From: Raillietiella orientalis
Taxonomy: Eukaryota
DNA: 61,229 nucleotides
NCBI GenBank assembly: GCA_036172245.1
Contig: JAYWIR010000151.1
Span: 1-61,229 of the forward strand
Direction: 5' to 3'
Position 1 is the stretch's first letter. Every line of letters begins with the position of its first letter. The translations under genes were made by a program, and so were the position numbers. A model generated the notes under the pieces. The model was given only the letters and a program-made list of their open reading frames with translations. It had not been told where the DNA came from and made no database searches. Positions 33,275-61,229 of this stretch are shown piece by piece.

Positions 33275-33562
33275 GCGTCCGCCGTGCACCGCGCAGTCAG
33301 ACGCTACTACTTCTGGTTGTACGCAAAGGAGTCCACGGAATGCAGTCTCTTTGAGCTGCTTCTTCCGACGGGTAACCCTGCTATCGACGAAGAGGAACAC
33401 GCCAGATTAGATTGGCCCTTCAAGGCGGAAGAAGTATCTTCCGCTATAGCGGGCCTGATGAGGCGTAAGGCGCCTAGGGAGGATGGCCTGCCCACGGATT
33501 TCTTTCAGTGTTTCCCGGCGGAGGTCGTCCTTCTGGTGCTAAGCCTTTTCTCTCTGATGCGT
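33275..33562 (+). mobile_element. Copy E2, first fragment (ORF2 linker and RT start)
   Basis: AVRRYYFWLYAKES...RRKAPREDGLP...LFSLMR; continues as SLMRETGDVP at 50736. Confidence 0.8.
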
Positions 33563-35772
33563 TTTAAACCCGGTTGCGCCGGGACGTTTATTTGTGAAAA
33601 CGAACCACAATCTTCAAGGCAAATTCATCCTTTCTAGACACAAGAAACGCCCATACAGAAAGTTCAGTTCAGAAAGATCACCGGCACGCAGGTTGCCTTC
33701 CAAAAGAAAGGAACAGAGGAAGAGGGATACAAAATAAGCAAAACATGAGAAAACAAACAAAGAAACAGTGGAGGTTGGGGTCAGGGATCCATGGTAGTAA
33801 ACGTTCCTGATCTTTCTAGAAGCGCTGTTTGACAATGGCGAATTCCCTGGAGACTTTTCTGCGCAGATGAGGCCACTTGACAGCTGCTTTCATAAGGTTC
33901 GTAGCGATTCTAACGGCGTCCGTTCGCTGCGAGCTTCCTTCTAGTTTACGGCGAGCGATCACGATGGCGCGGATGCAAGAGATTGTTGCGATAACAGCGC
34001 ATTTATTTAGTCCGTCTTTGCTGAATAAGCGTCGAAGCAGGTCTGTGGCAGTGTCCTGAGGACGACGAAGTGCCGAAGCAAGTCTCCGCCATAACTCCCG
34101 CAAGTCATTACACTCAAGGAGCAGGTGCGTAAGCGATTCTATCGCCCCGCACCTGAGGCAGTTCGGGGAGACGACTTTCCCTGTAACCAAGTTTCTGCGC
34201 TTATTGCACTAGAATCCCCAGTGCAGAAAAAGAAGAACATCCTGTTTCCATCGAAGCGGGAACACGAAGCTGTCCACACACAAGGAAGGGACCACGAGTT
34301 CTTCGGGGAGTAATCCAAGAACCTCACTCCAACGAAGAAGTCCCTTTGCCAGATTACGAGGAGTGGCAGCGACTACTAACACGCTCGTTCTGCAGCGGCT
34401 CAGCAGACTTCCCATTTCTGCAATGCTGCAGAAGAACTCCCATTTTGCCGGTTGGCTACTGTCGTTGTTTGCTCTGAGAGCAGACAGCGCTGCGGCGATA
34501 AGTAAGACGACTATCCGGGACCAAAGCGACCAGTCCCTTAGGATCACTCCTAGCGGTTTGCGTAAGATACCCTGTAAGGGTCGCAGTTGCTGTGGGCGCA
34601 CATCCAAAGTGGACGTCCAGTGCTCCGAAGCTTCCTGCTGCCAAGCATTCCAATTGGAGGGGCGGCAGGAAATCCAGGAATGGGCTAACAGCAACGAGGA
34701 CAAGTGCCTCAGTGGATAGCCAAATCCAGTTCTCCGGCGAAGGTTGCGCGGCAGCAACGAAAGCAATCCTGCACTGCCGACACATCGCTGGAGAATATGG
34801 CGAGCCGGAGCACACCAGTGACTTGACCACAATTTCCCACGTAGGAATAGAAGCCGGAACTGCACTTGCAGTTCAATCTTCTGGATAGTCAGGATGCCCA
34901 GGCCTGCGTGCTGGCATGGCGCCACCAAATCTTTGAGGCGAACCCTGGATCGGGCAGCGCCCCACAAGACCTTACGTAGGAGACGCTTCGCCCGGAGTTT
35001 AACCAAATAGGGAGGCGGGCAAACAAAAAATAAGGGGCGGAGGAGGGGTAAAAGAAAAGTGTTCCATATGCACTCTTTTTCCAACAAGACAAACTTGCCT
35101 TCCAGGAACGGGCCTAGAGCCATCTCTGCCTTTTGAAGACAGGCCGACCACGATTCAGACGAGCAGAAGTCGCTTAACGGTACGTCAAGGTACTTGAAGT
35201 ACCTGAGCGTGGGGATTCCCAGGCGGATCCAGTCGACCTGTCCCTTCCACGACGCACCCATGGGCACGACGGACCACTTCGCCCTGTTAACGCTCATGCC
35301 CGCTCCACGACGGATCAGCTCGAAGAAGTCTTGGACCGAGTTCGGCGGATTAGACATGGTCAACAGAAGCAGAAGGTGGTCGGCGTATGCTGCCGCGGAC
35401 GGAGTGCACGAAGAGGCGCTGGGCAGAACGGCCAGCGTCTGCCTGTACGCTCTTAGCACCAACTAAAAGTAGATGCTGAAGAGCAACGGGCTTAAGCTGT
35501 CGCCCTGCCTGATGCCTCTGCGCACGGCCACTCCGTACACACGGGAGCCACTGAAATGCAAGTTGATCATCGCGTGGCGCTACCAGGAGCGCAAGTACAG
35601 GAGAAGATGATTCGAAAGCCCAAGACGCTTCAGGAGCCCCAAGAGGAGTTCCTGGTTTTCACAGTCGAACGCCTTGTGCGCTCTAGGGTGGACGTGTTTT
35701 CTCGGTGCTCCTCGTGCCAGGAAGTCTCCCTCAGTGCAAGCGTCGTGTGATTCGGTGGTCGATCAGGCAGCT

Positions 35773-37433
35773 ATGCCTGACGCGACCACCAGGGATGGCC
35801 AGAGGGCAGCGGCAACGCCGCCCCCAGAGGCGATGGAGAGCCAGGGGGCGGCGGAAACGTCGCCCCCATAGGCGATGGAGGTGAGGGCATCCGCATCCAC
35901 AGAATCGGTCCCCTCTGCAGCGCGGGCGTGGAGCGCCGTTCTGTCGGCGCCATCGCCTGCAGCCGCGGCGGAATTGTCGGCCTATGTAGAGGAGGGGTAC
36001 AACCCCTCATTGTTCTACAAGGTAGGCAATTTATATTCTTTAGAGAGCGCGTGCGCCTTCTCGAAGGGCATGCGCGCTCTCGATGTGAAAGAGGAGGAGC
36101 TCAGCGCTATGACCATCCGCAGCGGGGGTCAGTACGTTGAGGTCATCTGCAAACATGCAGAGCTGGCCCAACGACTGCTTAAAACCCCCGTTGTGATGGG
36201 GACGCGCAGGGTTCAACTCACTACGGCGGACCGCAGCATGGTGGTCCACCTGTTAGGCGTGACCGCGCGAATGCGCAAAGACCAGGTTCGCGCCGCTTTG
36301 GAACAGTTTGGAACGGTCCACGCTCAGTGGACGAAAGTTAGTCCTCTCGGAGACTACACGGGGCTGCAACACGGCCTCACTGCTGCGCGCATGACCGTTC
36401 GGGAGGGCTGCACTCTTCCCCACAAACTGGTGGTCGAAGGCGAAACCGTCGAAATCTGGTATGTGGGGAAGCCGAAATACTGTGGCTTCTGCAATACGTC
36501 GGGCCACCTCAAAAAAAGGTGTCCCAATGTGCAGTGCCAAGTATGCGGCACAATGGGCCACACGAGGGAGGTGTGCCCAAAAGCAGCAGTGCGGGTGGTT
36601 TACAAGAGAAACCTTAAAAAACGCGCCCGGCTTCTGCAGAAAAGACTGGAGGCGAAAGCTGCCGCGAAGGCTGTGCCACCCGCGCCCAAGACCCAGGCCG
36701 CACCCGAGACCCCGGCGACCAACGCCGAAAAAGTTGAGGGAGCCGGCCAGGAGACTGAGTGGCAAGTGGCAACAGCCAAAAAATCAAAGAAGGAGAGGAG
36801 GATGGAAAAGAAAATCGCCTACCAACAGAAGAAGAAAGAGCAGGGTAGCGCGATAATTAAAGAGTGCAGCGTCGTTGTCGAACGCGTTCTCGATGTTGCC
36901 GAACGCTGCCGGAAAGAATTCGCCGCTACCGACGACCTCCCTCTGTTGACACAGTCAACAGCGAGGGGAGCGAGCCGGCGGCGGCGTCCGTCATCGACAC
37001 CACCATCGATGACGTAGCCTTCGCGCGAGCCGCGGAGGAGCTGGCAGCCTCGTTGCAGCCAGAACCCTCCAAGGCTGGCAAGAAGGCCGTAAGGCGTCCG
37101 GCCTCCCCTCAGGAGTCCCCCACTTCCTACCCCGAGGTGGAGGCCGGAAGCGCAGCCTCCGTTTCCACAGAACCGCGCAAGAAGGCTGGACGTAAGTCCA
37201 CAAAGCCAAGGAAGCTCGTCTCCCCCGCCGAAGGGGAAGAGATGGCTTCCGCAAGCGAGGGTGCCATGAGCGTGCGAAACTCTCGGGACCCGTCGCCCGA
37301 GAGACTCCCACGCACGGACACGGAGGGGATGGAGGGGGTGGAGGCCGAACAGGTGCCTCAGGTGCCTGAGAAGGCCGAAACCCCCATGGACATCCCGCCC
37401 GCCTCGCAAGAGGAGGGCTCCACCACACCTTAA
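35773..37433 (+). pseudogene. C1 ORF1 (TAG at 35869-35871, frameshift near 36940)
   Basis: ORF 35875-37017 has CGFCNTSGHLKKRC and CQVCGTMGHTREVC. Confidence 0.88.
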
Positions 37434-37447
37434 TCTTCCCAGCAGTA

Positions 37448-40400
37448 ATGCCGGGAATCTCCTCCCGCCGTCGTCTGCGCATCGCCGTTTGGAACGTGAA
37501 CGGCATGACAGACGCCGGCAGGAGACAAGACATGGTTGCCCTTCTGGAGTCCTACGACCTTGCGCTGCTGCAGGAGATCCACGTGATCTCTGCAGAACAA
37601 GCGCAGGAGATCGAACGGATCTCCGGAGAGCGGCTATGGTACAGGCGTGGGAGAGCGAAAAGTTGCGTTGTCGCCTACCTGCTTCGGCCAGCCGTCGAGG
37701 CCGCGGCTTGGGGCGTGCGGTTCGACGATCACGGTCCTGTCGGCCAGCTGACTCTCAGGTGTTCCGACTCGATCGATCTGATCGTCACGAACGTGTACGC
37801 ACCGAGCGGCAAGAACCTGATGAACAGGAGGGCGAGGAAAGAGTTTTTCCTTGCCCTCCGGCGAGACTGGCTGACCGAAACAGGCGTGCGGAATGCCCAT
37901 CTGGTTGCAGGCGATTTCAACGTTCGCCTGAAACCAGATGAGCAGAATGCCGAGCGTGACCTGGTCAACGAGGTGTGCATGGCGGTGCACACCTGGAATC
38001 TGTTGGCCAGTGCACCGGGGATGAAAGACAGCGTTGACCACGTGTTTCTTGACCAGCACCTGTGCCCTCGCGAGAGCAGGCGCGGCAAGTTACCGTGCGA
38101 GTTGTCCGACCATCGCCCGCTAGTCCTCGAGATCCATCCGCGCGACAGGGGCCCCCCCTCGTCAGCGTGGCGTCTCCCAGGGGACTGGCTGAAGCTCCCG
38201 GACGCGGCGGAACATCTCCGCACGTTCATACGGAGCTTCAGTCTGCGGACACTCCAGGATTGGGACCGCTTCAAGCGGTCGGTCCAGGAGTTCTGCGACC
38301 AGTTTCCTCTGCACCGCCTACCTACGGGTTTTGGGACCGGGGTCCGTAACGAACGAGCCTACCTTGAGGCCCGTCGTTACGCCAGGACCCCCGACATCCG
38401 CAGGCTGGCAAAAGACAAAGCGGAAGCCGAGAGGCAAGCCTGGCAGTCCGGATCGGCCAGCTTACTGGACGATCAGGGCCAGGAGCACTCGGCACCTTCC
38501 CAAATGCGCGGCCTGCTGCGGAGTTACTACACCTCCCTGTATGCCAGGGCACCTCCGGAGAGGAACGTCTCACGTCTCCTGCTTCCGGAAGGCACTCCAT
38601 CGATCATGGAGGAGCAGAGAAAGACCCTCGACGAGCCTTTCACGATGGACGAGATCCTCTCGGCCATCGGAAAGCTCAAGAGGCGAAAGGCTCCAGGGGA
38701 GGACGGCCTGCCCGCGGAGTTTTATCAAACTTTCGCGGCTGAGCTTACCCCCCTGGTACAGCAACTCACCTTGCTGATACGCGAAACAGGTGACGTTCCC
38801 GCCTCGTTTCGTTCGGCAAAGGTGCGGCTCCTCCCTAAGGGAGGAGATCTGAGGAGCATGAAGAACTGGCGTCCCATCACAATAGTGAATGCGGACGCCA
38901 AGTTGGTGGCCAAGGTTTGGGCAGAGCGTCTGGGACGGGTTGCCAACATCTTCATCAGCCCGGAACAGACATATGCTGTTCCCGGGCGAAGCATGGAGGC
39001 GAGCCTGTTCCACGCTTCCACCTGGCTAGAGCTCCAACATGAAAGGAGCTTGGTGCGCAGCTGGAATTCCGGTGCGTGCGCCGGCAAGGGGTTGGATGGT
39101 CGGGTGGGGGAGGGAGCCCTTGCGGTCGCAATCGACTTGCAGAAAGCATTCGATTGCGTCGACCAGAATCTCCTTCTGGAGCTTCTGGAACGCTTGGGCT
39201 TCGCGGCCTCATTAGTGGCCTATCTGCGCTTCTGCTGGCGCGACGCGCTCATCATTGTTACTTTCCGCGGGCAGACGGTGCAAGGCGTGTTGGTGCGGCG
39301 TGGGATCCGGCAGGGAGAAAGCCTGAGCCCCTTGCTCTTCAGTACCTACTTTGAGTTGGTACTGAGAGCGTACAGGGGAACTCTAGCGCACCTGCCGCAC
39401 GACTGTACCGGTACGCCGGCCGTTTTAGCATACGCGGAGGACCTTCTGCTGCTGCTACCTATGTCCACCCCGGCTGCGGCGGTCGAGGAGTTCTTCGACC
39501 TGCTACATCGGGGAACCGGACTTACGGTGAACAGGGCGAAGTCGTCCGTGATGCCAGTTTGTGCGGCGTGGGCAGGGCAGCAGGACTGGGTCCGTTTGGG
39601 GATCCCCACGGTGAGGTACTTCAAGTACCTTGGTGTGCCGTTGGGGGACTACTCCCCTGCGGAAGCGTGGTCCGGCTGCCTTCAAAAAGTAGAGACGGCG
39701 ATCGGCCCGTTCCGAGGCGGCAGGTTTTTCCTGGCTGAACGGGCCGCGGTTTGGAACACGTTCGCGGCTCCTCTCCTCCGCGCCCTGCTTTTTGTTTGCC
39801 CCCCCACAGAGATGATTAAAAAGCGGACAAAGGACCTCCTCCGTATCGCCCTTTGGGGCAACGGGAGGGCCCGAGTCCGCTTAAAGGACTTGTGCGCTCC
39901 TCGTCGGGATGGTGGTCTGGGCCTCCTGACGCTGGAGCGGCTGGAGCTTCAGCTCCAGTTCCGCTTGTCGGCTCTCGTTCCAGAGTTGTGGTGCACCTGT
40001 TGCTGCGTCCCTGCTCGTCTCCTACTCCAGCAAGCCACCGGCAAGACGGGACTGACGTCGTTTCTTGCACTCCGTCGCCGCGTCAACCGATGCGGACTCC
40101 AGCTACGGAGGGTGGCTGCGCTGTATCGGAAAAACCCAGGATTGCTCACCTGTCGCCCGTTTAACGGTAGTGCCTGGTTGCAGGAAACCGTTCGAACGTG
40201 GGGACGGTTCGGCATGCAACGCTCCCAACAGGAACGAAGGTTCCTGTTTGGGGGTTACAGAAGTTGCACACTCCGCGAGATCCTGGAGGATCCAAAGAAG
40301 AGAGCGTGGGCGGGATGAACCCCCCTCGCTGCTGCGCTTCCTTCCCTGAAGGAAGATCTGGACAGCGATGTTGCGGCGAAGTGGGTGGTTTCAGTATCAA

Positions 40401-41000
40401 TCTCGGGAAAGGAGAAGAAGATAGGAGAGTGGAAGACGGGGCAGTTAACAGACGCTGCTGCCCCGAGTACGCCTCGCAATGGACTTCTGCACTGGGGCGC
40501 GCTGCTCGATGTTCTCATTGAACATCTGAAGTGGCCCCCGGTGCTCATGAACACTTCCGCCCTCCTTTTAAAATGGCAGGAGTCGGCTCTCCTGTTGCAG
40601 CACTGGGGACTCCCCTCCAACGCCCGCCGACACCACTGGACCTGGGGAGCGGTGGTCCCCAATTGCGTCAGGTGTGGGGAACGGGAATCCCTCCCCCACC
40701 TGCTATTGGATTGTGTTGCCCTTCGGCCCCTTTGGTTTCGCTTTGCCGCGGCCATCGGAATCCCCTGCGGCAACCCCAGGGACGCACTGAAAGCCCTCTT
40801 CGTTGCCGACGCCCTTCGGCCAGCGGCCTCGTTAGCAGCTTTGTGCTGCCTACGCGGGAGGACAACGCGACCAGGGTGCCATCCAGCCAGCCTCCCAGTT
40901 CCTGAGGAGGGCGTCCCGATGGCCCCACCTGGATCCAGGAATACAGAAGAAGCTTGCCGGCATCCTGCAAAGGATGCAACGGCCCCACCAGCAACTGTGA
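37448..41000 (+). pseudogene. C1 ORF2 APE-RT-zinc finger (956 aa open, catalytic YADD changed to YAED, stop at 40318)
   Basis: WNVNG, LQEIH, NVYAP, GDFN, SDH, WRPIT, DLQKAFD, RQGESLSP, YAED and KYLG; zinc finger in ORF 40385-41107. Confidence 0.92.
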
Positions 41001-43798
41001 TCCCTTCCCTTACCCTCCCAACTTTTCTTTTCTTTTTTGTTTTGTTTTTTGTTTTTCCCCCTTCCCCCTGCTGCCGTGGTGGACCGTACCGGTCTGCAAA
41101 CCGGTGACCCGGCAGGCTCTGTGTTTCTTCGTGCGTGGCTGGAGCAATGGTCCAGCCACCGCACGTCTTTGTAAAAGTTTATTTTACAATAAACGCCCCG
41201 GCGAAATCCGGGTGAAAATCGAATGCTTTGTGCAAATCTACTGCTAGTGCCAAGGCTCCCGGCCTTTCTCCCGTCCGTCCGCACTAGCGCACGCAGTCGG
41301 CAGAAGTTCTTGCTGCTGTTCGGCTATCCGCAGCAACGCGCTCTTAAAGCTGCCACCAGGTGCGCGCGTGAAGAAGGTTCGCATCCATGGATCTACCCGG
41401 TACAGGGTAAGACTGCTCTACGCTTACCACGGACTCCGCGACTTTCCCTAAGCGCGTGACTCACAGCTTTGAAAACACCTTGACGTCCGTATTCACTAAT
41501 GTGATCGGACGCCAGTTGTTGAGTTGGCGCAGATCTTCTCCTTTCGGGAGGAGACGCACCCTCGCTGAGCGGAAGGAAGAAGGGACATCGCCCGTCACCC
41601 TAATCAGCGTCGAGATTCTAAGCACTAGTGGGGCGAGTTCCGCCGCGAAGCTCTTATAGAACTCCGCGGGCAGTCCGTCCTTACCTGGCCTCTTCCTTCT
41701 CTTGAGTCCTGCGATGGCGCAAGAAACTTCCTCCAACGTGAAGGGCTCGTCGAGACGATCGCGTTCCTCCTCGCCGACGCCATGTGCAGTTCGCGGCAAA
41801 AGTAGTTCGAAGAGGACTCTTTCCGTCGGGGAATTAGCGTAGAGCAAGGAGAAGTGACGCTTTAGTGCTCGCCGCACTTCGGCAGGAGCCGTGCATTCCC
41901 GAACTTGGTCGTCGAGCAGAATAGCCGCTCCAGACTGCCAGCCCTGGCACTCGGCCCTCGCCTTGTACTCTGCGAATTGCCGGACTTCCGTAAGTCTCGA
42001 GAAGGTGCGCGCCTGCAGAAATGCTCTACTATTGGCCACGCCTTTCCCGGAGCCGCGTGGTAGCAGGTGCAGGGGGAACCGGTCGCAAAACTCACGAACC
42101 GATCGATCTTTTAAGATGGTCCCAGTCTGCTAGTTCCCGGATGGCAAAGCCGCGAAGGAACTGGGAAAGATGCTCCGCGGCTTCCTTATGACTCAGCCAA
42201 TCCTCCGGCATCCTCCAAACATTGTTTGGAGGTTCCTTGCCCGGTGGGAGTAGCTCGAACTCCAGCCTATCATGGTCCAATAACGTGGACGGCACCCTGT
42301 CTCTCCTTCCCACTCGTGAGAGTAGGTGTTCATCGAGGTAGAGGTGATCCACGCACCTTTCCAGTTCAGGCTCGCCGGCTTCCAAGTTACGCGCGTACAC
42401 CGAAGCGCATGCCTCTTCCACGCACGACCGTTACGCCGGAGACCTCGTCCCGTTGCAAAGCAGGTGGACGTTGTATTCCCCTGCGACGAGATGTGACACT
42501 CTGGCTCCGGAGTTCCTGAGGCATTGGCTCTCCAGCACATCAAAGAACTCGATTCTTTCGACACGCCGATGAAAGCCGCTCGGTGCGTAGACGTTCGTTA
42601 CGACGAGGTTGATTGAATCTGACCACTTGAGTACAAGTTGGCCCATTCGCCCTACATGGTCGAATCCAACGCTGCGCACCGCTCCCGCCATCCTACTATG
42701 TACGAGTAACCCGACTCCGTACGATTGTGCAGAACCTTCTCGCCAGTATAGGGTGCCACCCGCGCGCTGTTCGATTTCGGCAACCTTCGCATCGGAGATG
42801 TAATGCATCTCCTGAAAAATCGCCAAATCGAAATGTCGCAGGGTGTCTGACACGTCTCGCCTTTTTCCGTCCCTGGGCAGTCCATTGACGTTCCAACAGG
42901 CTACGCTGAATCGACGAAAAGAGGCGACTTCCTGCATTAAGGCTGGGAAGGTGAGCACAGATTTCTCGCCTTGTCCGGCGAGTGGTCACGAGACAGAGCG
43001 GTCGATCTCGGAGACTGGACATCTCCATTCGACGCCGCACTGCTTGTTGCCGTTAGCTCAGAGGTGAGGTCCTCTTGCTGCTCTTTGCTCCCCAGCAACA
43101 CTTCCTCCTCGGCAACCACGCGCTTGCGGGTCTTCGGGAGGCGATTGCGCGGTTTCGGGCGGTTGTCGCGCTGTTTGCTTTTTCTGTCGGAATCTAGATC
43201 AGAATCCGACAGTCGAAGGCTTGCCAGGCGCTGCTGCTGTTTCCCGGAATTAGGGAAATCGTTCGCAGCCTGTTTCCTAGCGCTTTCTGCAACTGCGGCT
43301 GGGACACTCGTCCTTTTAGCCACTGCAGCAGCCTCCCGCTCCATCCACGAGAGGACGACTGCGCAGTAAGAAAGAATTCGCAATCCTTTTCTGGGTAGGT
43401 TTCGCGGGTTTCTTTCGCTCACTACACCTTAACACAGAGCTGCGAAGACCTTGATGGTTTCTTTCTAATGAACCTTCTAACCTGCAGCCAGCCGTCTTCC
43501 TTCGCGTCGCAGTTATCTTTGCCATCCTGAGATGGCGCTGCTTCCAAGGATGTAAGAGGCGTTGCCTTGGCTGCCTCTTGGAGTGCTTCCTCCTCGCAGG
43601 CGTAAGCAACTCCTCTAGCGATCGCGAGAGCCTTGCGCACGGGCGGTATCGCCGCCGCTGAACGAAAGGGAGGCGTGATTATAGCTAGTTTAAAACTATA
43701 CCCAATACCCCGCCAAGGCAGTGTTTAAAACCACTGCCAAGCCAATTTTTGAGTGCCCTGAGAGAGCAAGTGTTTGAGTGAACGCCAGTGTGGAAAGA

Positions 43799-45685: not shown

Positions 45686-45698
45686 GTCTTCCCCTTTT

Positions 45699-48614: not shown

Positions 48615-51600
48615 TTCAAGAAGAACACAGTGATGTTAATGCCCGCCAGGAAGATGCCGATCGCTACGGGAGTGACCGGATGAATCTGTTAGAGATTGGC
48701 ACGACGCTTTGGAGGAGTGACCTTCCGCCGTGCACCCAGGATGACCTCCTGATGTTTTATCACGGAGGAATCCAGAGTGGGTCCCGATTGCAGCACTTCG
48801 CAGGAAGACGGGAAGACCGAGACTGCGCAGCATGTGGAGACGACGACACGAGACTTCACGTCTTGACGTGTCCCACACTGCTGCATGACTGACTGATCCT
48901 GAAATGGATCATAGGACTTACCAACAAGTCCGTTATGGAGATCCTCGCCGGGATGTTTCATGGGGATGGTAATGTTTCCTGTTACAATCCCATGGTGCGG
49001 AGGGCCATAGCCCTCTTCGTCATCGCCATACTTGTGCGGTGGTGGAAACTGAGGAAAGCCAGGAGAGCCGCAGCACCGATGAAGATCCTACAAGGGCTCT
49101 TGAAGAGGGAAATGGGCATCAGAACTGCGGGAAGATCCACGCCTGGACGTACCGATTCATCCTGAAGAGGATCCAGGACGACGCCCGGGACCATCCAGCT
49201 GGAATTTCTTCCTGAAAAGCAGAACTCTAGTGCAACCCAAGGACCCCCAAGTGCAAAAGGTTTGTTTTGAGTGAATGAGAGTGCGAATGTAAATATTGTA
49301 TTTTTATAGAAAAATAAACTTACTTACCCCTTTTGGGACTTGGGGAAACTTAGTGATTGCGAGAGGCGCTGCCTCTTCCAGATCGGAGGGCTCTTGCGTT
49401 GCTTTTGCTACCGTTGGGGGCAGTGCTGTAGCGGTTGTCCTCGCCCTAGCGGTTTCTTTCTTGGCCGCAGTCGGCGCTACGTCCGCGAGCGAGGACTGCG
49501 GGTTTGCCGGCTGTTTCTTCGCAGCACTGGGCGCCTCTGGCATTTTGGCCGCGGTAGGTTGAGACGGCGCGGTATTCTTTGCCCGCGGGCGCGTTTTTCC
49601 CGTTTCGGGCGAACGACCGAATTCTGCGCCGCTCGTCGAGGCCTTGGTACGAGGTTTCGCGGTCGTGATGCCGACTGTTGTAGGCTTTTTGACCTTCGGC
49701 ACAATGTCTCCTGCATTCAACAATTGGCTGCGAGGTCTCCTAGAAAGGTCACATTCTTCGTGAGCTTCCTTCGCGTCGATAGCCGGAGGCTTTGCCGCGA
49801 CGTGTTTTTTTGTTTTTCATGACTTCTTTGTGGGGGCGAGAAACAGTTTTCTGCACGTGCGTGGTCGCGGTTTTCGCAACGCTTTTCGGAGCTTTGATGT
49901 TTCTTTCTCTCGATTCGCGGAGATTATTCCTTAATGCGGAACGCGATTCGTTCCTGCGCTTTTCGTTTTTTAAAAAGAGCTCCGGGCACGTTCCTTCAGT
50001 GTGTCCGTGCTCGTAGCAGTAACGGCAAGCGGCCGAGAAACACTTCGTATTGCGGTGACCCTCCTGCCCGCATTCCGCGCATACACGCGTTTGCCCGGCA
50101 AACCACAGGCGGACGGTCATTCCATCCACCTGCAGTCGCGTGGGCATTGCACGGCGATCCGTCATCGTCACTCGCACTTGCGCGAGCCCGCTGTGGTGGT
50201 CTTCGAACCCTTCAGCAGGGTTTGGCAGCCTCCAAAGCGCTTGGACGGTAGCGTATTTTTCAAGGGCCGCCACGACTTGGAGGTCCGAAAGGCCCTTACA
50301 CTCCCCACTGAGCCGGACAACGAACGACTGGTCCGTTGTGACAGGGAGTATTTCCTGCCCACGAATGAGCAGCGGCGTGTGCAGAAAACGCTGCGTAAGG
50401 ACAGCGTCCTTACTGGACACCTCCCAGAAGCCGCACCCAATCATGGGCATGATGGACACCAGTTGGACTTTTTGAACTCCAATCCGTTAGAGTTCCTGGA
50501 CAAACTCGCGCCCAATTCACTCAGGCATGAGGACACTTACGTTATACCTGAGTGCAGGCGAGGACAGAGGCTCCTTGCTAGCAGCCGAAGCAGCCATCTC
50601 AGTAGCAGGTGGCGTTCCCTTCTTGCGGCTGATTTTCTTCTTTGCTCCCATTGCAGCACAGAAGCACAGAAGAACAAAAAATCACAAGAGTCAGCCTACC
50701 GCGTAGCGACGCAAGAGCACGTCCGTACGCGACCGTCGCTGATGCGTGAGACGGGAGATGTTCCCGCTTCTTTCCGCTCAGCAAAGGTGCGTCTCCTGCC
50801 GAAAGGCGGTGATTTGCGCGTCCTCAGCAACTGGCGTCCGATCACCTTCGTGAATTCGGACGTCCAGTTGTTCTCCAACCTATGTGTCGCGCGCCTGGGG
50901 AGAATCGCGGAGTTCTTGGTAGGTCCGGAGCAGACGTATGCTGTTCCGGGGCGGTCCATGGACGCGAATCTCTTCTTCGCGCGAACATGGTTCGACCTGC
51001 AACAGCGCGTGGCGCAGCAGAGTCAGGCAGCCGAAATCGCCGCTGCCAAAGGTAAGCGGCGGTGTTCAAGGCACGATGGAACGCCGGAAGCCTTAGCGGT
51101 CGCCGTCGATCTCTGCAAAGCGTTCGAAAGCGTAAACCAGGACCTCCTTCTGAAGCCTCTGGGACGCCTAGGCCGCCCGACGCACCTCATCGCCTACTTG
51201 CGCTCTTGCTGACGCCACGCGTTATGCTGTATCTCTTTCAGCGGACGCCACGTGTATGGCGTTCCCATATGGCGGGGTATCAGGCAGGGAGACACCTTAA
51301 GCCCCCTGCTCTTCAGCATCTTCTTTGAGTTGGTGCTGAGTGCGGACAGGCTGACGCTGGCCAACCTGCCGAGCTCCTGCCCGGGAACACCGGCCGTGAC
51401 CGCCTATGCTGACGACCTTCTGCTACTGCCCATGTCCATCCCGGCGTCCAGGCTCGAAAACTTCTTCGAGCTTATTCGTCGCGGAGCGGGCCAGAGCGTC
51501 AACAGGACCAAATCAACCGTTGTACCGGTTGGCTCTACGTGGGAGAGGCAGTCCGACTGGATCCACCTGGGGATCCCCACAAGCAGGTGCTTGAAGTACC

Positions 51601-52349
51601 TCGGCGTTCCCTTGGGCGCCTTCTGACCAGCAGAAGCGTGGTCGGACTGCCTTCACAAGGCCGAGACCGCTCTAGGCCCGTTCCATGGCACCAGGTTTCT
51701 CCTGTCCGTACCCGCCTTCGTGTGGAACATTTTCATTGCCCTTCTCCTCCGTCTCCTCTTTATTGTTTGCTTCCCTCCCTACTTGGCTAAGCGCCAGAAG
51801 CAACGCCTGCTGCGTAACGCCCTGTGGGGACCGGCGAGGTCCAGGATACGCCTGAAGGACTTGGCGGCACCTCGGTGGGATGCAGGATTGGGCATCCTGA
51901 CGCTGGAGTGGATCGGACTGCTAGTGCAGTTCCGCATGCTGGCACTTTGCGCCCAGCTCTGGACTACTCCCTGGTGTGCTCCAGCGCGGCTGCTGCTTCG
52001 AAGCTGCACGGGTGGCGACGGATTGCGTTCGTTGCATCTGCGCACGGAGCGCGTCCAGAGAGGATTCGGCTTCCCTTTGTAGCAGCTCGCCACGCTTCTG
52101 GGAAAGCATGAGTGGATCTCCTGCCGGCCGACGAACTTCAACGCCTGGAGGCAGGAAGCCTTATCGTCCTGGGCAGCGCAACAGGATGTGTCCCGTTTGG
52201 AACTCCGTTGCGCGAAACTTTCCCCATACTGTCCAGTGGGGAAGCTGCTGGATGACCAGGACCAGTGGACACGCCTAGCCGCTACGCCACTCGCCGAAGC
52301 ACAGTGTGCACTGATGGTGCGAGATGATAGTGACCTGCCGTCGAGGTTG

Positions 52350-52489
52350 GTGCCCAGACCACTGTTGGACTCAGTCGATACGTCGGCGAGAACCTGGTGC
52401 TGGTGTTCACTGACATGGAGAAGGCCTTCGACTCCATCGACCACGGCATGGTGCTGAAGGTTCTGGAGAAGCTTGGGCTTCTCCGGAAC
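52350..52489 (+). repeat. Captured 140-bp copy of the family L RT (matches 47257-47394)
   Basis: Direct alignment with about 8 substitutions and a 2-nt insertion. Confidence 0.9.
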
Positions 52490-52510
52490 CTAACCTAACC
52501 TAACCTAACC
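52487..52510 (-). repeat. Interstitial (TTAGG)n telomere-type repeat
   Basis: AACC(TAACC)4 on the plus strand, perfect. Confidence 0.85.
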
Positions 52511-53320
52511 GTTGCCGAAACGCGACTGATGTGCGGCTGGAGGACGTGCGAGGTAGCAGACGCTGCTACGATATGCCTTCGTGCCAAGGGACTTCTCTGG
52601 TGGAGTGAGCTCCTCGGGGTGCCCACCGATGAACTTGTGGTCCCTTTTGCGTGTTTCGACGAGACTCTCTTTCCCCTTCGGTGGAAGCAGAACGCTTTTC
52701 TGCTGGTGCATTAGGGTTTGTACTGCAACCAGCGGGAGCACCTGATTTCCGGGGTAGTTGCGTCCCCGAACTGTGCCAACTGCGAAGCGGTGGAATCGCT
52801 TTCGTATTTGCTGTTTGAGTGCGGTACCCTCCGGGAGCTGTGGCAGCGGCTGTCTTCAGCGCTCCTGCACTCTGGACACACCGCACTGGATTGGATGCGC
52901 CGCTTCTACACGCGTGGCGGACTTTCTCTTGAAGCGGTCGTCGCAATCATCTGCTGCGTCCGCGCCATTTTCAAGGCCCGCACGTATTGCAGATGCGAGC
53001 AGTCCCAACATCGGTCTCCGACACCGCAGCCTGCAACCTGCAAATGGCTGCCGGGTGCCCACATCTTTGAGCAGAAGTGAAGACGAAGATCGGCGGCATT
53101 CACCGCCGGTTCTGAGAATAGGAACGGTTAGACTGTATACCCCTGTCCCCGCACTTCCACCCAATTTATTTATTTATTGTGCCCCCCTCTACCGTTTCTA
53201 ACTCTCACTGTGCCCGCACTGCGTTCCGGGAAATCTACTCCCCATTTTCTGTTCCCCTTGCCTGGGAACACAGTTCCCAGTTGATATTATAATAAAACTC
53301 CCGGCGCAATCGGGTAATAA

Positions 53321-54473
53321 ACGACAACGCTTCATTCTTTTATCTGCTCGCTTGCCTGCTGTTTTTTCTGGCGGTATGCAAGCTTTTTCTCTAATCTCCT
53401 CTCCTTCTTTGATTTTTTCGCCGTTGCCAATTGCCACCCATTCTCCTGCCCGGCTCCCTCAACTTTTTCGGCGTTGGTCGCCGGGGTCTCGGATGCGGCC
53501 TGGAACTTGAGCGCGGGTAGCACAGCCTTCGCGGCAGCTTTCGCCGCCAGCCTTTTCTGCAGAAGCCGGGCGCGTTTTCTAAGGTTTCTCTTGAAAACCA
53601 CCCGCACTGCTGCTTTTGGGCACACCTCCCTCGTGTGACCCATTGTTCCGCATACTTGGCACTGCACGTTGGGGCACCTTTTTTTCAGGAGGCCCGACGG
53701 ATTGTAGAAGCCACAGTATTTCGGCTTCCCCACATACCAGAGGTCGACGGTTTCGCCTTCGACCATCAATTTGTGGGGAAGAGTGCAGCCCTCCCGAATG
53801 GTCACGCGCGCAGCCGTGAGGCCATGTTGCAGTCCCGTGTAGTCCTCGAAAGGACTAACTTTCGTCCATTGCGCGTGGACCGTTCGGTATTCCTCCAACG
53901 CGGCGCGATCCTGTTAGTTGCGCATCCGCGCGGTAACACCCAACAGGTGGACCACTATGCTGCGTTCCGCCGTAATAGGGAGGAGCCTGCGCATCCCCAT
54001 CACACCTGGGGTTTCAAGCGGTCGTTGCGCCAGCTCAGCATGTTTGCAGATGACCTCAACGTACTGATCCCCGCTGCGGATGGTCATAGCGCTGAGCTCC
54101 TCCTCTTTCACATCGAGAGCGCGCATGCCCTTCGAGAAGGCGCGCGCGCTCTCTAAAGAATAAAGGTTGCCTATCTTGTAGAACAATGAAGGGTTGCACA
54201 CCTCCTCTACATAGGCCGACAATTCCGATGCTGCTGAAGGCGATGGCTCCTACACAATGGCGCTTCACGCCCGCGCTGCATTGGCACTGATTCTGTAGGG
54301 GCGGATGCCCCCACCTCCATCGCCTCTGGGGGCGGCGTTGCCGCTGCCGCCTGGCCATCCCTGGTGGTCGCGTCAGGCATCACTGCCCAATCGACCACCG
54401 AACCACACGACGCTTGCACTGGGGGAGACTTCCTAGCACGAGGAGCCCCGAGAAAACTCTACCACCCTGGAGC
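53321..54473 (-). mobile_element. Family C copy C3, 5' UTR and ORF1 part, more diverged, in tandem with C2
   Basis: ORFs 53914-54222 and 53332-53898 are homologous to C1 ORF1; 5' end GCTCCAGGGTGG. Confidence 0.9.
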
Positions 54474-54488
54474 ACGCAAGGCGTTCGA

Positions 54489-57400
54489 TTTTCACCCGGA
54501 TTTCGCCGGTGCGTTTATTATAAAACAAACATTTACAAAGACGTGCAGTGGCTGGACGATTGCTCCAGCCACGCACGAAGAAACACAGAGCCTGTCGGGT
54601 CATCTGCTCGCAGACCGGTACGGTCCACCACGGCAGCAGGATGAAAGGGAAAAACAAAAAACAAAACAAAAAAAGAAAAGAAAAGTTGGGAGGGTAAGGG
54701 AAAAGATCACAGTTGCTGGTAAGACCATTGCATCCTTTGCAGGATGCCGGCAAGCTCCTTCTGTATTCCTCGATCCTAGTAGAGCCATAGGGACGCCCTC
54801 CTCAGGAACTGGGAGGCTGGCTGGAAGGCACCCTGGTCGCGTTGACCTCCCGTTGCCTTCCTCCAATTGGTGACGATCCCGCGTAGGCAGCACAAAGCTG
54901 CTAACGAGGCCGCTGGCCGAAGTGCGTCAGCAACGGAGAGGGCTTTCAGTGCGTCCCTGGGGTTGCCGCAGGGGATTCCGTTGGCTGCGGCAAAGCGAAA
55001 CCCAAGGGGGCGAAGGGCAACTCAATCCACTAGCAGGTGGGGAAGGGACTCCCGTTCCCCACACCTGACGCAGTTGGGGTCCACCGCTCCCCAGGTCCAG
55101 TGGTGACGGCGGGCGTTGCAGTGGAGTACCCAGTGCTGCAACAGGAGAGCCGAATCCTGCCATTTTAAGGGCACGGTGGAAGTGTTCATGAGCACCGGGG
55201 GCCACTTGAGATGTTCAATGGGAACATCGGGCAGCGCGCCCCAGCGCAGAAGTCCATTGGGATGCGTACTCGGGGACGCAGCGTCTGTTAACTTACCTGT
55301 CTTCCACTCTCCTAACTCCTTCTCATTTCCGGAGAACTTAACTGAAACCTCCCACTTCGCCGCAACATCGCTGTCCAGATCTTCCAGCAATGAGGGTAGC
55401 GCAGCAGCGAGGGAGGTTCTTCCTGCCCACGCTGTCTTCTTTGGATCCTACAGGATATCGCGGAGCGTGCAACTTCTGTAACCACCAAACAGGAACCTTC
55501 GTTCCTGTTGAGAGCGTTGCATGACGAACTGTCCCCACGTACGAACGGTTTCCTGTTACCAGTCACTACCGTTAAATGGGCGACAGGTGAGCAATCCTGG
55601 GTTTTTCCGATACAGCGCAGCCACCCTCCGTAGCTGGAGTCCGCATCGGTTGACGCAGCGACGGAGTGCAAGAAGCGACGTCAGTCCCGTCTTGCCGGTG
55701 GCTTGCTGGAGAAGGAGACGTGCGGGGACGCACCAACAGGTGCACCACCACTCTGGAACGAGTGCCGACAATCGGAACTGGAGCTTAAGCTTCAGCCGCT
55801 CCAGCGTCAGCAAGCCCAGACCACCGTCCCGACGAGGAGTGCACAAGTCCTTTAAGCGGACTCGGGTCCTCCTGTTGCCGCAAAGGGCGATAAGGAGGAG
55901 GTCCTTTGTCTGCTTTTTAATTCTTCCTGTGGGTGGGCAAACAAAAAGCAGGGAACGGAGGAGAGGAGCCGCAAACGTGTTCCAAACCACGCCCCGTTCA
56001 GTCAGGAAAAACCTGCCGCCTCGGAACGGGCCGATCGCCGTCTCTACTTTTTGAAGGCAGCCGGACCACGCTTCCGCAGGGGAGTAGTCCCCCAACGGCA
56101 CACCAAGGTACTTGAAGTACCTCACCGTGGGGATCCCCAAACGGACCCAGTCCTGCTGCCCTGCCCACGCCGCACCAACTGGCATCACGGACGACTTCGC
56201 CCTGTTCACCGTAAGTCCGGTTCCCCGATGCAGCAGGTCGAAGAACTCCTCGACCGCCGCAGCCGGGGTGGACATAGGGAGCAGCAGCAGAAGGTCGTCC
56301 GCGTATGCTGAAACGGCCGGCGGACCGGCACAGTCGTGCGGCAGGTGCGCCAGAGTTCCCCTGTACGCTCTCAGTACCAACTCAAAGTAGGTACTGAAGA
56401 GCAAGGGGCTCAGGCTGTCTCCCTGCCGGATCCCACGCCGCACCGGCACGCCGTGCACGGTCTGCCCGCTGAAAGTAACATTGATAAGCGCGTCGCGCCA
56501 GCAGGAGCGCAGATAGGCCATTAATGAGGCCGGGAAGCCCAAGCGTTCCAGAAGCTCCAGAAGGAGATTCTGGTCGACGCATTCCAATGCTTTTCGCAAG
56601 TCGATTGCGACCGCAAGGGCTCCCTCCCTCCACCCGACCATCCGACCCCTTGCCAGAGCACGCACCGGAATTCCGGCTGCTCAATAAGCCCCTTCCTTGT
56701 TGGAGCTCTAACCATGTGGAAGCGTGGAACAGGTTCGCCTCCATGCTCCGCCCGGGAACAGCATAAGTCTGTTCCGGGCTGATGAAGATGTTGGCAACCC
56801 GTCCCAGACGCTCTGCCCACATCTTGGCTATCAACTTGGCGTCCGCATTCACTATTGTGATGGGACGCCAGTTGTTCATGCTCCTTAGGTCTCCTCCCTT
56901 CGGGAGGAGCCGCACCTTTGCTGAACGAAACGAGGTGGGAACGTCACCTGTTTCACGGATCAGCAAGGTGAGTTGCTGTACCAGGGGGGTAAGCTCAGCC
57001 GCGAAAGTTTGGTAAAACTCCGCGGGCAGGCCGTCCTCCCCTGGAGCCTTCCGCCTCTTGAGCTTTCCGATGGCCGAGAGGATCTCGTCCATCGTGAAAG
57101 GCTCGTCGAGGGTCTTGCTCTGCTCCTCCCCGATCGCTGGAGTGCCTTCCGGAAGCAGGAGTCGTGAGACGTTCCTCTCCGGAGGTGCCCTGGCATACAG
57201 GGAGGAGTAGTAACTCCGCAGCAGGCCGCGCATTTGGGCAGGTGCCGAGTGCTCCTGGCCCTGATCGTCCAGTAAGCTGGCCGATCCGGACTGCCAGGCT
57301 TGCCTCAAGGCTCCCGCTTTGTATTCCGCCAGCCTGCGGATGTCGGGGGTCCTGGCGTAACGACAGGCCTGCAGGTAGGCTCGTTCGTTACGGACCCCGG

Positions 57401-60058
57401 TCCCAAAACCCGTAGGTAGGCGGTGCAGAGGAAACTGGTCGCAGAACTCCTGGACCGACCGCTTGAAGCGGTCCCAATCCTGGAGTGTCCGCAGCCTGAA
57501 GCTCCGTATGAACTTGCGGAGATGTTCCGCCGCGTCCGGGAGCTTCAGCCAGTCCCCTGGGAGACGCCACGCTGACGAGGGGGGACCCCTGTCGCGCGGA
57601 TGGATCTCGAGGACTAGCGGGCGATGGTCGGACAGCTCGCACGGTAACCTGCCGCGGCTGCCCACGCGAGGGCACAGGTGCTCGTCAAGAAACACGTGGT
57701 CAATGCTGTCTTCCATCCCCGGTGCACTGGCCAACAGATTACAGGTGTGCACCGCCATGCACACCTCGTTGACCAGGTCACGCTCGGGATTCTGCTCATC
57801 TGGTTTCAGGCGAACGTTGAAATCGCCTGCAACCAGATGGGCATTCCGCACGCCTGCTTCGGTCAGCCAGTCTCGCCGGAGGATAAGGAAAAACTCTTTC
57901 CTCGCCCTCCTGTTCATCAGGTCCTTGCCGCTCGGTGCGTACACGTTCGTGACGATCAGATCGATCGAGTCCGACCACCTAAGAGTCAGCTGGCCGACAC
58001 GACCGTGATCGTCGAACCGCACGCCCCGAGTCGCGGCCTCGACGGCTGGCCGAAGCAGGTAGGCGACACCGCAACTTTTCGCTCTCTCACACCTGTACCA
58101 TAGCCGCCCTCCGGAGATCCGTTCGATCTCTTGCGCTTGTTCTGCAGAGATCACGTGGATCTCCTGCAGCAGCGCAAGGTCGTAGGACTCCAGAAGGGCG
58201 GCTATGTCTCGTCTCCTGCCGGCGTCTGTCATGCCGTTCAGGTTCCAAACGGCGATGCGCAGACGACGGCAGGAGGAGATTCCCGGCATTACTGCTGGGA
58301 AGATTAAGGTGTGAGGGAGGCCTCCTCTTGCGAGGTGGTCAAGATGTCCATGGGGGTTTCGGCCTTCTCAGGCACCTGAGGCACCTGTTCGGGCTCCACC
58401 TCCTCCATCCCCTCCGTGTCCGTGCGTGGGAGTCTCTAGGGCGACGGGTCCCGAGAGTTTCCCACGCTCATGGCACCCTCGCTTGCGGAAGCCATCTCTT
58501 CCCCTTCGTCGGGGGAGACGAGCTTCCTTGGCTTTGTGGACTTACGTCCAGCCTTCTTGCGCGGTGCCGTAGAAACGGAGGCTGCGGTTCCGGCCTCCAC
58601 CTCGGGGTCGGAAGTGGGGGACTCCTGAGGGGAGGCCGGACGCCCTACGGCCTTCTTGCCAGCCTTGGAGGATTCTGGCTGCAAAGAGGCTGCCAGCTCC
58701 TCCGCGGCTCGCGCGAAGGCTACGTCATCGATGGTGGTGTCGATAACGGACGCCGCCGCCGGTTCGCTCCCCTCGCTGTTGTCTGTGTCAACAGAGGGGA
58801 GGTCGTCGGTAGCGGCGAGTTCGTTCCGGCAGCGTTCGGCAACATCGAGAACGCGTTCGACAACGACGCTGCACTCTTTAATTATGGCGCTACCCTGCTC
58901 TTTCTTCTTCTATTGGTAAGCGATTTTCTTTTCCATCCTCCTCTCCTTCTTTGATTTTTTAGCTGTTGCCACTTGCCACTCAGTCTCCTGGCCGGCTCCC
59001 TCAACTTTTTCGGCGTTGGTCGCCGGGGTCTCGGGTGCGGCCTGGGTCTTGGGCGCGGGTGGCACAGCCTTCGCGGCAGCTTTCGCCTCCAGTCTTTTCT
59101 GCAGAAGCCATGCGCGTTTTTTAAGGTTTCTCTTGTAAACCATTCGCACTGCTGCTTTTGGGCACACCTCCCTCGTGTGACCCATTGTGCCGCATACTTG
59201 GCACTGCACATTGGGACACCTTTTTTTGAGGTGGCCCGACGTATTGCAGAAGCCACAGTATTTCGGCTTCCCCACATACCAGATTTCGACGGTTTCGCCT
59301 TCGACCACCAGTTTGTGGGGAAGAGTGCAGCCCTCCCGAACGGTCATGCGCGCAGCAGTGAGGCCGTGTTGCAGCCCCGTGTAGTCTCCGAGAGGACTAA
59401 CTTTCGTCCACTGAGCGTGGACCGTTCCAAACTGTTCCAAAGCGGCGCGAACCTGGTCTTTGCGCATTCGCGCGGTCACGCCTAACAGGTGGACCACCAT
59501 GCTGCGGTCCGCCGTAGTGAGTTGAACCCTGCGCGTCCCCATCACAACGGGGGTTTTAAGCAGTCGTTGGGCCAGCTCTGCATGTTTGCAGATGACCTCA
59601 ACGTACTGACCCCCGCTGCGGATGGTCATAGCGCTGAGCTCCTCCTCTTTCACATCGAGAGCGCGCATGCCCTTCGAGAAGGCGCACGCGCTCTCTAAAG
59701 AATATAAATTGCCTACCTTGTAGAACAATGAGGGGTTGTACCCCTCCTCTACAGAGGCCGACAATTCCGCCGCGGCTGCAGGCGATGGCGCCGACAGAAC
59801 GGCGCTCCACGCCCGCGCTGCAGAGGGGACCGATTCTGTGGATGCGGATGCCCTCACCTCCATCGCCTATGGGGGCGACGTTTCCGCCGCCCCCTGGCTC
59901 TCCATCGCCTCTGGGGGCGGCGTTGCCGCTGCCCTCTGGCCATCCCTGGTGGTCGCGTCAGGCATAGCTGCCTGATCGACCACCGAATCACACGACGCTT
60001 GCACTGAGGGAGACTTCCTGGCACGAGGAGCACCGAGAAAACACGTCCACCCTAGAGC
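54489..60058 (-). mobile_element. Family C copy C2, full length (ORF1 59965-58304, ORF2 58289-54707; both disrupted)
   Basis: GGACGTG at 60048-60042; ORFs 58910-59863, 56382-58289 and 55556-56665 (YADD); 3' hairpin at 54519-54493; flanks 54474-54488 and 60059-60073. Confidence 0.95.
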
Positions 60059-61217
60059 GCACAAGGCGTTCGACTGTGAAAACCAGGAACTCCTCTTGGG
60101 GCTCCTGAAGCGTCTTGGGCTTTCGAATCATCTTCTCCTGTACTTGCGCTCCTGGTAGCGCCACGCGATGATCAACTTGCATTTCAGTGGCTCCCGTGTG
60201 TACGGAGTGGCCGTGCGCAGAGGCATCAGGCAGGGCGACAGCTTAAGCCCGTTGCTCTTCAGCATCTACTTTTAGTTGGTGCTAAGAGCGTACAGGCAGA
60301 CGCTGGCCGTTCTGCCCAGCGCCTCTTCGTGCACTCCGTCCGCGGCAGCATACGCCGACCACCTTCTGCTTCTGTTGACCATGTCTAATCCGCCGAACTC
60401 GGTCCAAGACTTCTTCGAGCTGATCCGTCGTGGAGCGGGCATGAGCGTTAACAGGGCGAAGTGGTCCGTCGTGCCCATGGGTGCGTCGTGGAAGGGACAG
60501 GTCGACTGGATCCGCCTGGGAATCCCCACGCTCAGGTACTTCAAGTACCTTGACGTACCGTTAAGCGACTTCTGCTCGTCTGAATCGTGGTCGGCCTGTC
60601 TTCAAAAGGCAGAGATGGCTCTAGGCCCGTTCCTGGAAGGCAAGTTTGTCTTGTTGGAAAAAGAGTGCATATGGAACACTTTTCTTTTACCCCTCCTCCG
60701 CCCCTTATTTTTTGTTTGCCCGCCTCCCTATTTGGTTAAACTCCGGGCGAAGCGTCTCCTACGTAAGGTCTTGTGGGGCGCTGCCCGATCCAGGGTTCGC
60801 CTCAAAGATTTGGTGGCGCCATGCCAGCACGCAGGCCTGGGCATCCTGACTATTCAGAAGATTGAACTGCAAGTGCAGTTCCGGCTTCTATTCCTACGTG
60901 GGAAATTGTGGTCAAGTCACTGGTGTGCTCCGGCTCGCCATATTCTCCAGCGATGTGTCGGCAGTGCAGGATTGCTTTCGTTGCTGCCGCGCAACCTTCG
61001 CCGGAGAACTGGATTTGGCTATCCACTGAGGCACTTGTCCTCGTTGCTGTTAGCCCATTCCTGGATTTCCTGCCGCCCCTCCAATTGGAATGCTTGGCAG
61101 CGGGAAGCTTCGGAGCACTGGACGTCCACTTTGGATGTGCGCCCACAGCAACTGCGACCCTTACAGGGTATCTTACGCAAACCGCTAGGAGTGATCCTAA
61201 GGGACTGGTCGCTTTGG
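60059..61217 (+). mobile_element. Family F copy F2, RT C-terminal fragment (host of C2)
   Basis: Near-identical reverse complement of 34521-35679; begins HKAFDCENQELL. Confidence 0.92.
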
Positions 61218-61229
61218 ACAGGAAGCATC

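Follow-up and report, generated by a model that had tools for sequence, protein, structure and literature searches.

A 61,229-nucleotide stretch of contig JAYWIR010000151.1 from Raillietiella orientalis, hereafter the window, holds three copies (C1, C2 and C3) of a long interspersed nuclear element (LINE) that we designate C. Two of these, C2 and C3, lie head to tail and are separated by exactly one 15-bp unit of the sequence that C1 duplicated on insertion into another LINE, H. The junction between C2 and C3 is real and non-random. On balance we lean towards the reading that C is a target-specific LINE which inserted twice at one site, as in R1 tandems. A double insertion is favoured by a spacer that has the length of the duplication, by identical element boundaries, by the separate descent of the two copies and by the position of the likely older member downstream. 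The strongest evidence for specificity is the clean 15-bp duplication around C1 taken together with the C2/C3 junction, and not the junction alone, which the initial annotation of this sequence had singled out as the best single piece of evidence.

The C2/C3 junction and the target site of C

The boundaries at the junction were set by comparison with C1 (35680-41218), which serves as the reference copy. The features of the two loci, with the open reading frames (ORFs), reverse transcriptase (RT) motifs, target-site duplications and untranslated region (UTR) that define them, are as follows.

33566..35664, minus strand: host LINE H, ORF2 from RT motif A to its end, with the 3' UTR and 3' hairpin (33591-33579)
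35665..35679, plus strand: target-site duplication of C1, 5' copy, TCGAACGCCTTGTGC
35680..41218, plus strand: C1, reference copy of LINE C, 5539 bp, with ORF1 at 35875-37017 and ORF2 at 37448-40318
41219..41233, plus strand: target-site duplication of C1, 3' copy, TCGAATGCTTTGTGC, matching the 5' copy at 13 of 15 positions
41234..42982, minus strand: host LINE H, ORF2 residues 1-569, up to RT motif A
53321..54473, minus strand: C3, 5' fragment of a diverged C copy, 1153 bp, C positions 1-1199
54474..54488, minus strand: target unit T2, 15 bp, TCGAACGCCTTGCGT in the element sense; its plus-strand reading encodes R-K-A-F-D
54489..54512, minus strand: 3' terminus of C2, hairpin CCGG-CGAAAT-CCGG followed by GTGAAAA, no poly(A) tail
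54489..60058, minus strand: C2, full-length C copy; ORF1 with one stop and a 1-base insertion, ORF2 with a 1-base insertion and two late stops

Read along the minus strand, the last 24 bases of C2 (GCACCGGCGAAATCCGGGTGAAAA, 54512 to 54489) are followed by the 15-mer TCGAACGCCTTGCGT (54488 to 54474) and then by the start of C3 (GCTCCAGGGTGG, 54473 to 54462); the plus strand at 54474-54488 reads ACGCAAGGCGTTCGA. The order given by the initial annotation, in which the C2 3' hairpin is followed by the 15-bp target and then by the C3 5' end, was thereby confirmed base by base. Its description of two copies in tandem holds as regards their head-to-tail arrangement, but C3 is only a 1153-bp 5' fragment, and the elements here lie on the minus strand. 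The sequence of C2 ends at 54489 with ...CCGGCGAAATCCGGGTGAAAA, as does that of C1. The spacer matches the duplications of C1 at 13 of 15 positions (5' copy) and 11 of 15 positions (3' copy), and its length and register are identical to theirs; the junction thus consists of exactly one target duplication of the length usual for C. Element boundaries agree to the base at the C1 5', C1 3', C2 3' and C3 5' ends. These are four informative junctions from three elements, all in the register of the 15-mer, which represent only two independent instances of the target. The window contains no other array in which two C copies flank a target unit.

C1 splits the minus-strand LINE H, such that ORF2 residues 1-569 are found at 42937-41218 and residues 565-930 at 35678-34581. 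The target 15-mer is present once in each of seven uninterrupted LINE copies (at 11241, 22800, 26242, 3608, 14681, 39139 and 51113), where the context of the empty site is GTCGATCT-15mer-CTG, encoding V-D-L-H-K-A-F-D. Because C1 lies between the halves of H with the 15-mer on both sides, and because empty sites carry it singly, the repeat is a true 15-bp target-site duplication; C1 thus shows a duplication of host sequence and no terminal repeats. The 15-mer, which can also be written TCGAAYGCYTTGYGY, encodes RT motif A (HKAFD) on the strand opposite to that of C, and C is antisense to its host. Allowing up to two mismatches, it occurs eight times in the window, against a shuffle expectation of 0.21 (0 of 100 shuffles reached eight).

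The target is not simply the most conserved 15-mer of the RT gene, as it ranks 509th of 1316 15-mer positions among seven RT copies. A 'FADD' motif read antisense to C ORF1 (at 54043, 59585 and 36153) was judged a chance match, since about two are expected from the frequency of the pattern (analyst's estimate).

Judged by its sequence, C is an L1-like non-LTR (long terminal repeat) retrotransposon whose endonuclease is of the apurinic type and whose 3' end is structured and lacks poly(A). C1 begins with GCTCTAGGGTGG and is composed of a 195-nt leader, an ORF1 of 380 amino acids, an ORF2 of 956 amino acids and a 900-nt 3' region that terminates in GAAAA. Two CX2CX4HX4C knuckles were seen in the translation of ORF1. 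ORF2 matches the Pfam domains Exo_endo_phos (PF03372, 1.1e-9, residues 14-222) and RVT_1 (PF00078, 4.3e-18, residues 463-731), and its closest solved structure is human LINE-1 ORF2p (9.4e-42; R2 proteins are at about 1e-12). Folding yielded three hairpins in the 900-nt 3' region. The hairpin that the initial annotation had placed at the 3' end of C2 is borne out there and in C1: for the last 100 nt z = -5.7 in C1 and -4.5 in C2, with 0 of 200 shuffles folding as well for either, and both 3' ends contain a terminal CCGG...CCGG stem. Unlike L1 proper, C has no 3' poly(A) tail; the Zepp LINEs of green algae likewise end in poly(A), where C instead has the hairpin and GAAAA. No ribozyme was found in the 5' region of C (35500-36100) by an Rfam scan with E up to 1.

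Named database relatives are only 21-30% identical; the protein search gave one relative of 619 amino acids with 69% identity, on a 2.9-kb contig, and all others at 30% or less, and matches in the protein atlas are to generic endonuclease and RT clusters. An exact scan of metagenome contigs gave no match to the last 21 bases of C. Among metagenome loci related to C ORF2 (n = 68) we found generic LINEs and no relatives of C; 66 have 20-37% identity, and two tiny segments (L066 and L068) reach 50% and 73%.

Descent of the two copies and origin of the pair

We found that C2 (60058-54489) is 94.7% identical to C1 over 5571 columns, whereas C3 (54473-53321) is 85.0% identical to both C1 and C2 over C positions 1-1199 (88-89% without gap columns), in agreement with the earlier remark that C3 is the more diverged copy. 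The initial annotation had also raised the alternative that C3 is an old neutral tandem duplicate of C2, and had proposed that the ratio of nonsynonymous to synonymous divergence (dN/dS) be measured. Across 326 ORF1 codons, C3 compared with C1 has dS = 0.256, dN = 0.088 and dN/dS = 0.34 (P = 2e-7, Fisher's test), against 1.27 and 1.16 for shifted-frame controls on the same columns. As the part of C2 that overlaps C3 is now mostly C1-like, the test was repeated on C positions 880-1195, where C2 retains its own sequence; here the ratio for C3 against C2 is 0.30 (102 codons). In the same interval C1 and C2 differ at eight sites, and C3 agrees with C1 at six of these, with C2 at none and with neither at two. 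Ratios of 0.34 and 0.30 against controls of 1.16-1.27, together with the sharing of none of the eight C2-private states, indicate that C3 is not the neutral twin of C2. By these sequence comparisons, the divergence between C3 and C2 built up mostly under selection in separate active lineages, rather than by neutral decay in place.

These figures bear directly on the idea that the pair goes back to one C insertion, which doubled on the spot when its two 15-bp duplications underwent unequal exchange or replication slippage, and that divergence and an overwriting of C2 by conversion from C1-like copies followed. Unequal exchange is the accepted route of dimer expansion (10.1101/158386), the C1 and C2 loci show direct traces of conversion or recombination with each other, and the window also contains a direct duplication with a period of 11.56 kb (9921-16768 and 21481-28343). 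Twins decaying in place, however, should have a dN/dS near 1, and C2's own part shares no private state with C3. The exchange would moreover be confined to 15 bp of homology, and to rescue this account all of the C2 sequence that overlaps C3 would have to have been converted, with conversion ending exactly at the junction. We regard such an origin as very unlikely.

C3 is dead, with four in-frame stops, a 1-base deletion, gaps of 42 bp and 3 bp, and its first zinc knuckle destroyed; C2 has three stops and two 1-base insertions over ORF1 and ORF2. Disabling changes thus number five per approximately 1.0 kb in C3 and five per approximately 3.3 kb in C2 (P = 0.058, one-sided). This difference, together with a nesting in which C3 is cut by a LINE (B'') that is in turn split by H, suggests that C3 is the older insertion.

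A weak difference in age leaves more room for a single retrotransposition event, in which the RT copied a C3-type RNA that started in the upstream target and then jumped to a C2-type RNA, at its 3' end, as a new template, or in which the template was a read-through transcript from a C-target-C dimer that already existed; in either case the 15-mer would derive from a source locus and not from the present site. Such an event allows C2 and C3 to come from different sub-lineages, and template switching or the addition of foreign RNA at 5' ends is seemingly active in this island, as in the chimera of U4 small nuclear RNA (snRNA) and LINE A described below. The spacer of exactly the duplication length would nonetheless be coincidental unless C RNAs start or end exactly at the edge of the target, and the read-through version merely shifts the origin of the dimer elsewhere. 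C3, cut at position 1199, adjoins the 3' end of another LINE and not any target duplication. Overall a single event seems unlikely to us; even so, the 15-mer would imply a C3-type source copy in the same target, and the specificity of C would stand.

Rearrangement of the locus and the proposed mechanism

Three further features delimit the C2/C3 locus.

50725..53320, plus strand: LINE B'', 3' part, ending in ...CCGGCGCAATCGGGTAATAAA directly next to C position 1199 of C3
60059..60073, minus strand: target unit upstream of C2, TCGAACGCCTTGTGC, identical to the unit upstream of C1 and part of a recent copy
60074..61217, plus strand: copy of the 3' part of host LINE H (RT from motif A on), 99.83% identical to 35664-34521

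The segment 34521-36557 recurs as an inverted copy at 61217-59181 with only three differences in 2037 bp, and this near-identical stretch spans 1144 bp of H, the target unit and the first approximately 880 bp of C. From 36558 on, C1 and C2 differ by 3-10% (95.3% identity in the spacer, 94.9% in ORF2 and 91.1% in the 3' region). Such a sharp step in divergence shows that a recent conversion or inverted duplication overwrote the 5' part of C2 and its whole upstream flank, as far as the window reaches, with sequence from the C1 locus. The inverted copy may extend past the end of the window. As the unit upstream of C2 is a copy of that of C1, the C2/C3 locus yields only one independent target unit; of the pattern target-element-target-element reported in the initial annotation, the spacer unit therefore stands, whereas the upstream unit, though present, is a recent arrival from the C1 locus.

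On the other side of the pair, B'' is split by H into pieces at 33278-33565 and 50725-53320, which are collinear in ORF2 residues 351-432 and 443-919. H itself has its 5' end at 50724, extends as far as the 3' hairpin and carries both LINE A and C1. The probable order of nesting is C3 first, followed by B'', H and finally C1. Apart from these copies the window has one C-like piece, at 8850-9053, which overlaps the end of C3 and lies on the opposite strand. The remainder of C3 was not found beyond B'' within the window, and further rearrangement must therefore have occurred.

In so rearranged a locus it is conceivable that C has no sequence specificity, but only a regional or chromatin preference for a LINE-rich region, and that the shared 15-mer stems from rearrangement of one original insertion locus or from an assembly mis-join in highly repetitive sequence. 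Rearranged LINE pieces make up the window like a mosaic, 74% of its bases recur within it, the recent 2-kb inverted copy is of a type that confuses assemblers, and the one public run examined (X1) contains just a 0.15 share of the sampled words. Against this, the spacer is unlike both duplications of C1 (13 and 11 of 15 positions) and the 3' part of C2 is 5-9% off C1, so that the junction is not a copy of the C1 locus; the near-identical stretch is more than 4.6 kb away from it. For an element that lacks specificity, the chance that two insertions fall on an identical base of one motif would be about 1e-4 (analyst's estimate, from approximately 10 such sites, 61 kb and two strands). We therefore give this explanation little credence.

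Logan contigs of X1 were aligned to 52800-61229 at 85% likeness. They are short and mostly diverged (n = 268; 28 at 99% identity or more, 66 at 95-99%, 84 at 90-95% and 90 below 90%), and among the matches listed no piece bridges the C2/C3 junction; depth at 54205-54485 is 0.95. Two X1 contigs run upstream of 60060 with an uninterrupted host motif, that is, an empty site. Another joins a B-type 3' end (...AATAAACGCCCCGGCGTGACCGGGTGAGAA) to C-like sequence at 58126, a nested insertion that is absent from the window.

We propose the following mechanism for two insertions at one site. C would integrate, antisense, at a single precise position in other LINEs of the island, namely the 15 bases coding for RT motif A (..H/R-K-A-F-D), and would duplicate those 15 bases in doing so. 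Two C elements of different sub-lineages would have entered the site at 54474-54488 in succession, C3 probably being the first. The first insertion would leave a copy of the target on either side, and the second would use the copy upstream of the first; this copy keeps its flank and would be reusable if recognition lies in the flank plus the 15-mer, giving element-target-element with one unit in between. The first nick is predicted on the host-sense strand after ..GTTCGA (site ..GGCGTTCGA/CTG..) and the second 15 bp away on the other strand, and read-through RNA carrying the target may help priming. C encodes the endonuclease and RT that the model needs. Another LINE later cut C3 at position 1199 and, separately, C1-locus sequence replaced the first approximately 880 bp of C2 and its upstream flank. 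The earlier suggestion of re-insertion at a regenerated site is retained here as the best reading, C3 not being a neutral twin of C2.

Several observations weigh against two targeted insertions. The independent instances of the target are only two (the site in host H and the C2/C3 spacer), from three elements in one window, and at least seven other LINE copies in the window hold the site unoccupied. The 15-mer is not especially conserved, as its rank of 509 in 1316 among the seven RT copies indicates. The original host upstream of C2 is no longer visible beneath the copy from the C1 locus, and recombination between C1 and C2 is proven, so that older conversions may have reshaped C2. C3 has no sequence past C position 1199, its remainder is missing from the window, and neither a downstream target unit nor a host flank survives; the signal for its greater age is weak (P = 0.058). 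Finally, both frames of C1 are open, yet its RT box (39431) reads YAED, whereas those of C2 (56305) and seven other RT copies read YADD. No C copy other than C1 has both frames open, and C1 may thus have impaired catalysis or be inactive.

Related systems and the surrounding LINE island

The likeness of C to the R1, Tx1 and Zepp systems concerns architecture and published descriptions, and for each system the comparison covers those parts of the cited sources that were available to us. R1 tandems are separated by identical 33-nt ribosomal DNA (rDNA) duplications and P-element dimers by an 8-nt duplication, and both have been read as double insertions (10.1101/158386). The R1 arrays of Drosophila melanogaster resemble C in that neighbouring head-to-tail copies, likewise of an endonuclease-type LINE, have a short duplicated segment of the target between them (10.1101/158386). 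They differ in their target (the 28S rRNA gene), in having identical 33-nt spacers and in being expanded arrays, whereas C has a LINE coding motif as its target, a 15-bp spacer and a dimer only, formed by two sub-lineages.

LINEs of the Tx1 clade target specific sites in other transposons, for example Tx1 in Tx1D and Tx1-Mar in Mariner-N4_AMi, with others in LTR elements and Harbinger (PMC4494074). They are, like C, L1-related LINEs with an apurinic-type endonuclease and a defined site inside another mobile element; the targets described for this clade in animals are DNA transposons, LTR elements, snRNA genes and microsatellites, whereas that of C is the RT-coding region of a LINE (PMC4494074). 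The Zepp and Zepp-like clusters of green algae arise by nested insertion of LINEs into existing copies (PMC8226300, PMC3446292, 10.1101/2024.02.27.582245), and share with the window a LINE-only island, nested insertion and GC-rich L1-type elements (PMC8226300, PMC3446292). Zepp clusters differ in that they are described as mostly 5'-truncated 3' ends of one family, whereas the window has many families that are 65-75% alike, several full-length copies and a base-precise site. The logic of double insertion, the targeting of transposons by LINEs and nested LINE clusters are thus known already, and the motif-A target of C in LINEs was not met among these systems. We found no LINE that targets the RT motif-A codons of another LINE in the literature searched, and an earlier description is possible.

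The window has a G+C content of approximately 58% and is a eukaryotic island composed almost entirely of non-LTR retrotransposons, with large open frames that carry Exo_endo_phos and RVT_1 domains. A tblastn search of the window with one ORF2 gave 28 ORF2 segments on both strands, which were grouped by the analyst into approximately 19 element pieces; families are 65-75% alike in ORF2, and ORF1 relatives occupy most of the window that these segments leave over.

Known target-specific LINEs insert into rRNA genes, snRNA genes, telomeres, microsatellites and certain DNA transposons. If C is directed at the sequence that codes for RT in other LINEs, it would parasitise elements that are parasites themselves, and this could explain how LINE-only islands, such as the proposed centromeres of some green algae, originate and remain confined. 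It would also add a new endonuclease specificity, possibly useful for targeted insertion, and the C2/C3 junction would illustrate how tandem repeats are seeded by double insertion. A broader reading, which we regard as doubtful, is that the island has grown through a guild of approximately ten related L1-like families that insert base-precisely into one another's genes (C antisense into RT motif-A (KAFD) codons, B in sense orientation into the endonuclease GDFN codons of E/D, and E into the ORF1-ORF2 spacer of C-like elements), possibly as a centromere-type cluster. If such mutual targeting were true, every insertion would knock out an enzyme of a competing family, head-to-tail dimers that hold a single target unit would arise as a side effect, and there would be a nucleotide-level mechanism that confines Zepp-like LINE clusters to one place per chromosome.

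Despite being only 65-75% alike in ORF2, at least six LINE families have in common a 3' terminal motif, ATAAACGCCCCGG-loop-CCGGGTG followed by a short A-rich tail, which was found at nine places with up to two mismatches and at one more by a second pattern. The LINE families that share it also have GGACGTGTTTT in common near their 5' ends. The two motifs together suggest a common RNA recognition signal and possible cross-mobilisation among families. The shared 3' ends are located as follows.

5745, 13415, 16743, 24975, 28318, 41189 and 53301, plus strand: shared 3' ends
54518, 33591 and 29759, minus strand: shared 3' ends

The two units of the 11.56-kb direct duplication are 90.7% alike overall, with identity that varies from part to part, and sequence present upstream of the second unit is deleted upstream of the first. 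Within 16770-28343, a full-length LINE B2 (19097-25004) lies in sense orientation in the endonuclease G-D-F-N codons of an E/D-family LINE, with junctions at 19096/19097 and 25004/25005 and TTTCAATC repeated on both sides. An intact GDFN site is found near the start of the window on the minus strand (approximately 340-350), and the sister junction of B1 and D1 (13440/13441) is the same 3' junction as that of B2. B1 and B2 are approximately 96% alike and D1 and D2 approximately 87%, and identity drops gradually across the junction; the position of B at GDFN may thus represent a second site-specific pairing, or an old duplication with conversion.

LINE A lies inside host LINE H, with U4 snRNA, the sole Rfam match in the window, at its 5' end.

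43616-49363: U4-LINE A chimera, with LINE A ORF1 at 43988-44908 and ORF2 at 45699-48614

The U4 copy is full-length (43629-43766; Rfam model positions 1-138, 78 bits) and fused to the 5' end of LINE A, and the two are bracketed by a single 13-bp direct repeat (43616-43628 and 49351-49363, 11 of 13 positions alike). U4 and LINE A look like one retrotransposed chimera, formed by template switching (as in U6/L1) or carrying an snRNA-derived head. Chimeras of snRNA and LINE of the U6/L1 type, and the snRNA-headed SINEU, are similar to this fusion inside one direct repeat; the likeness concerns LINE A and not C, and the mechanism is a presumed one.

A second head-to-tail LINE junction is found at 16750-16800, where CCTCC separates the 3' end of D1 (...CCCGGGTGTAAA) from the 5' end of E (GCGGCCAGTTGGAGGACGTG). 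A sister copy, E' (96.9% alike), has the same CCTCC before its 5' end, at 9030-9080, and interrupts the ORF1-ORF2 spacer of a C-like fragment, at a point where C1 reads ..GAACCCTCC/AAGG.

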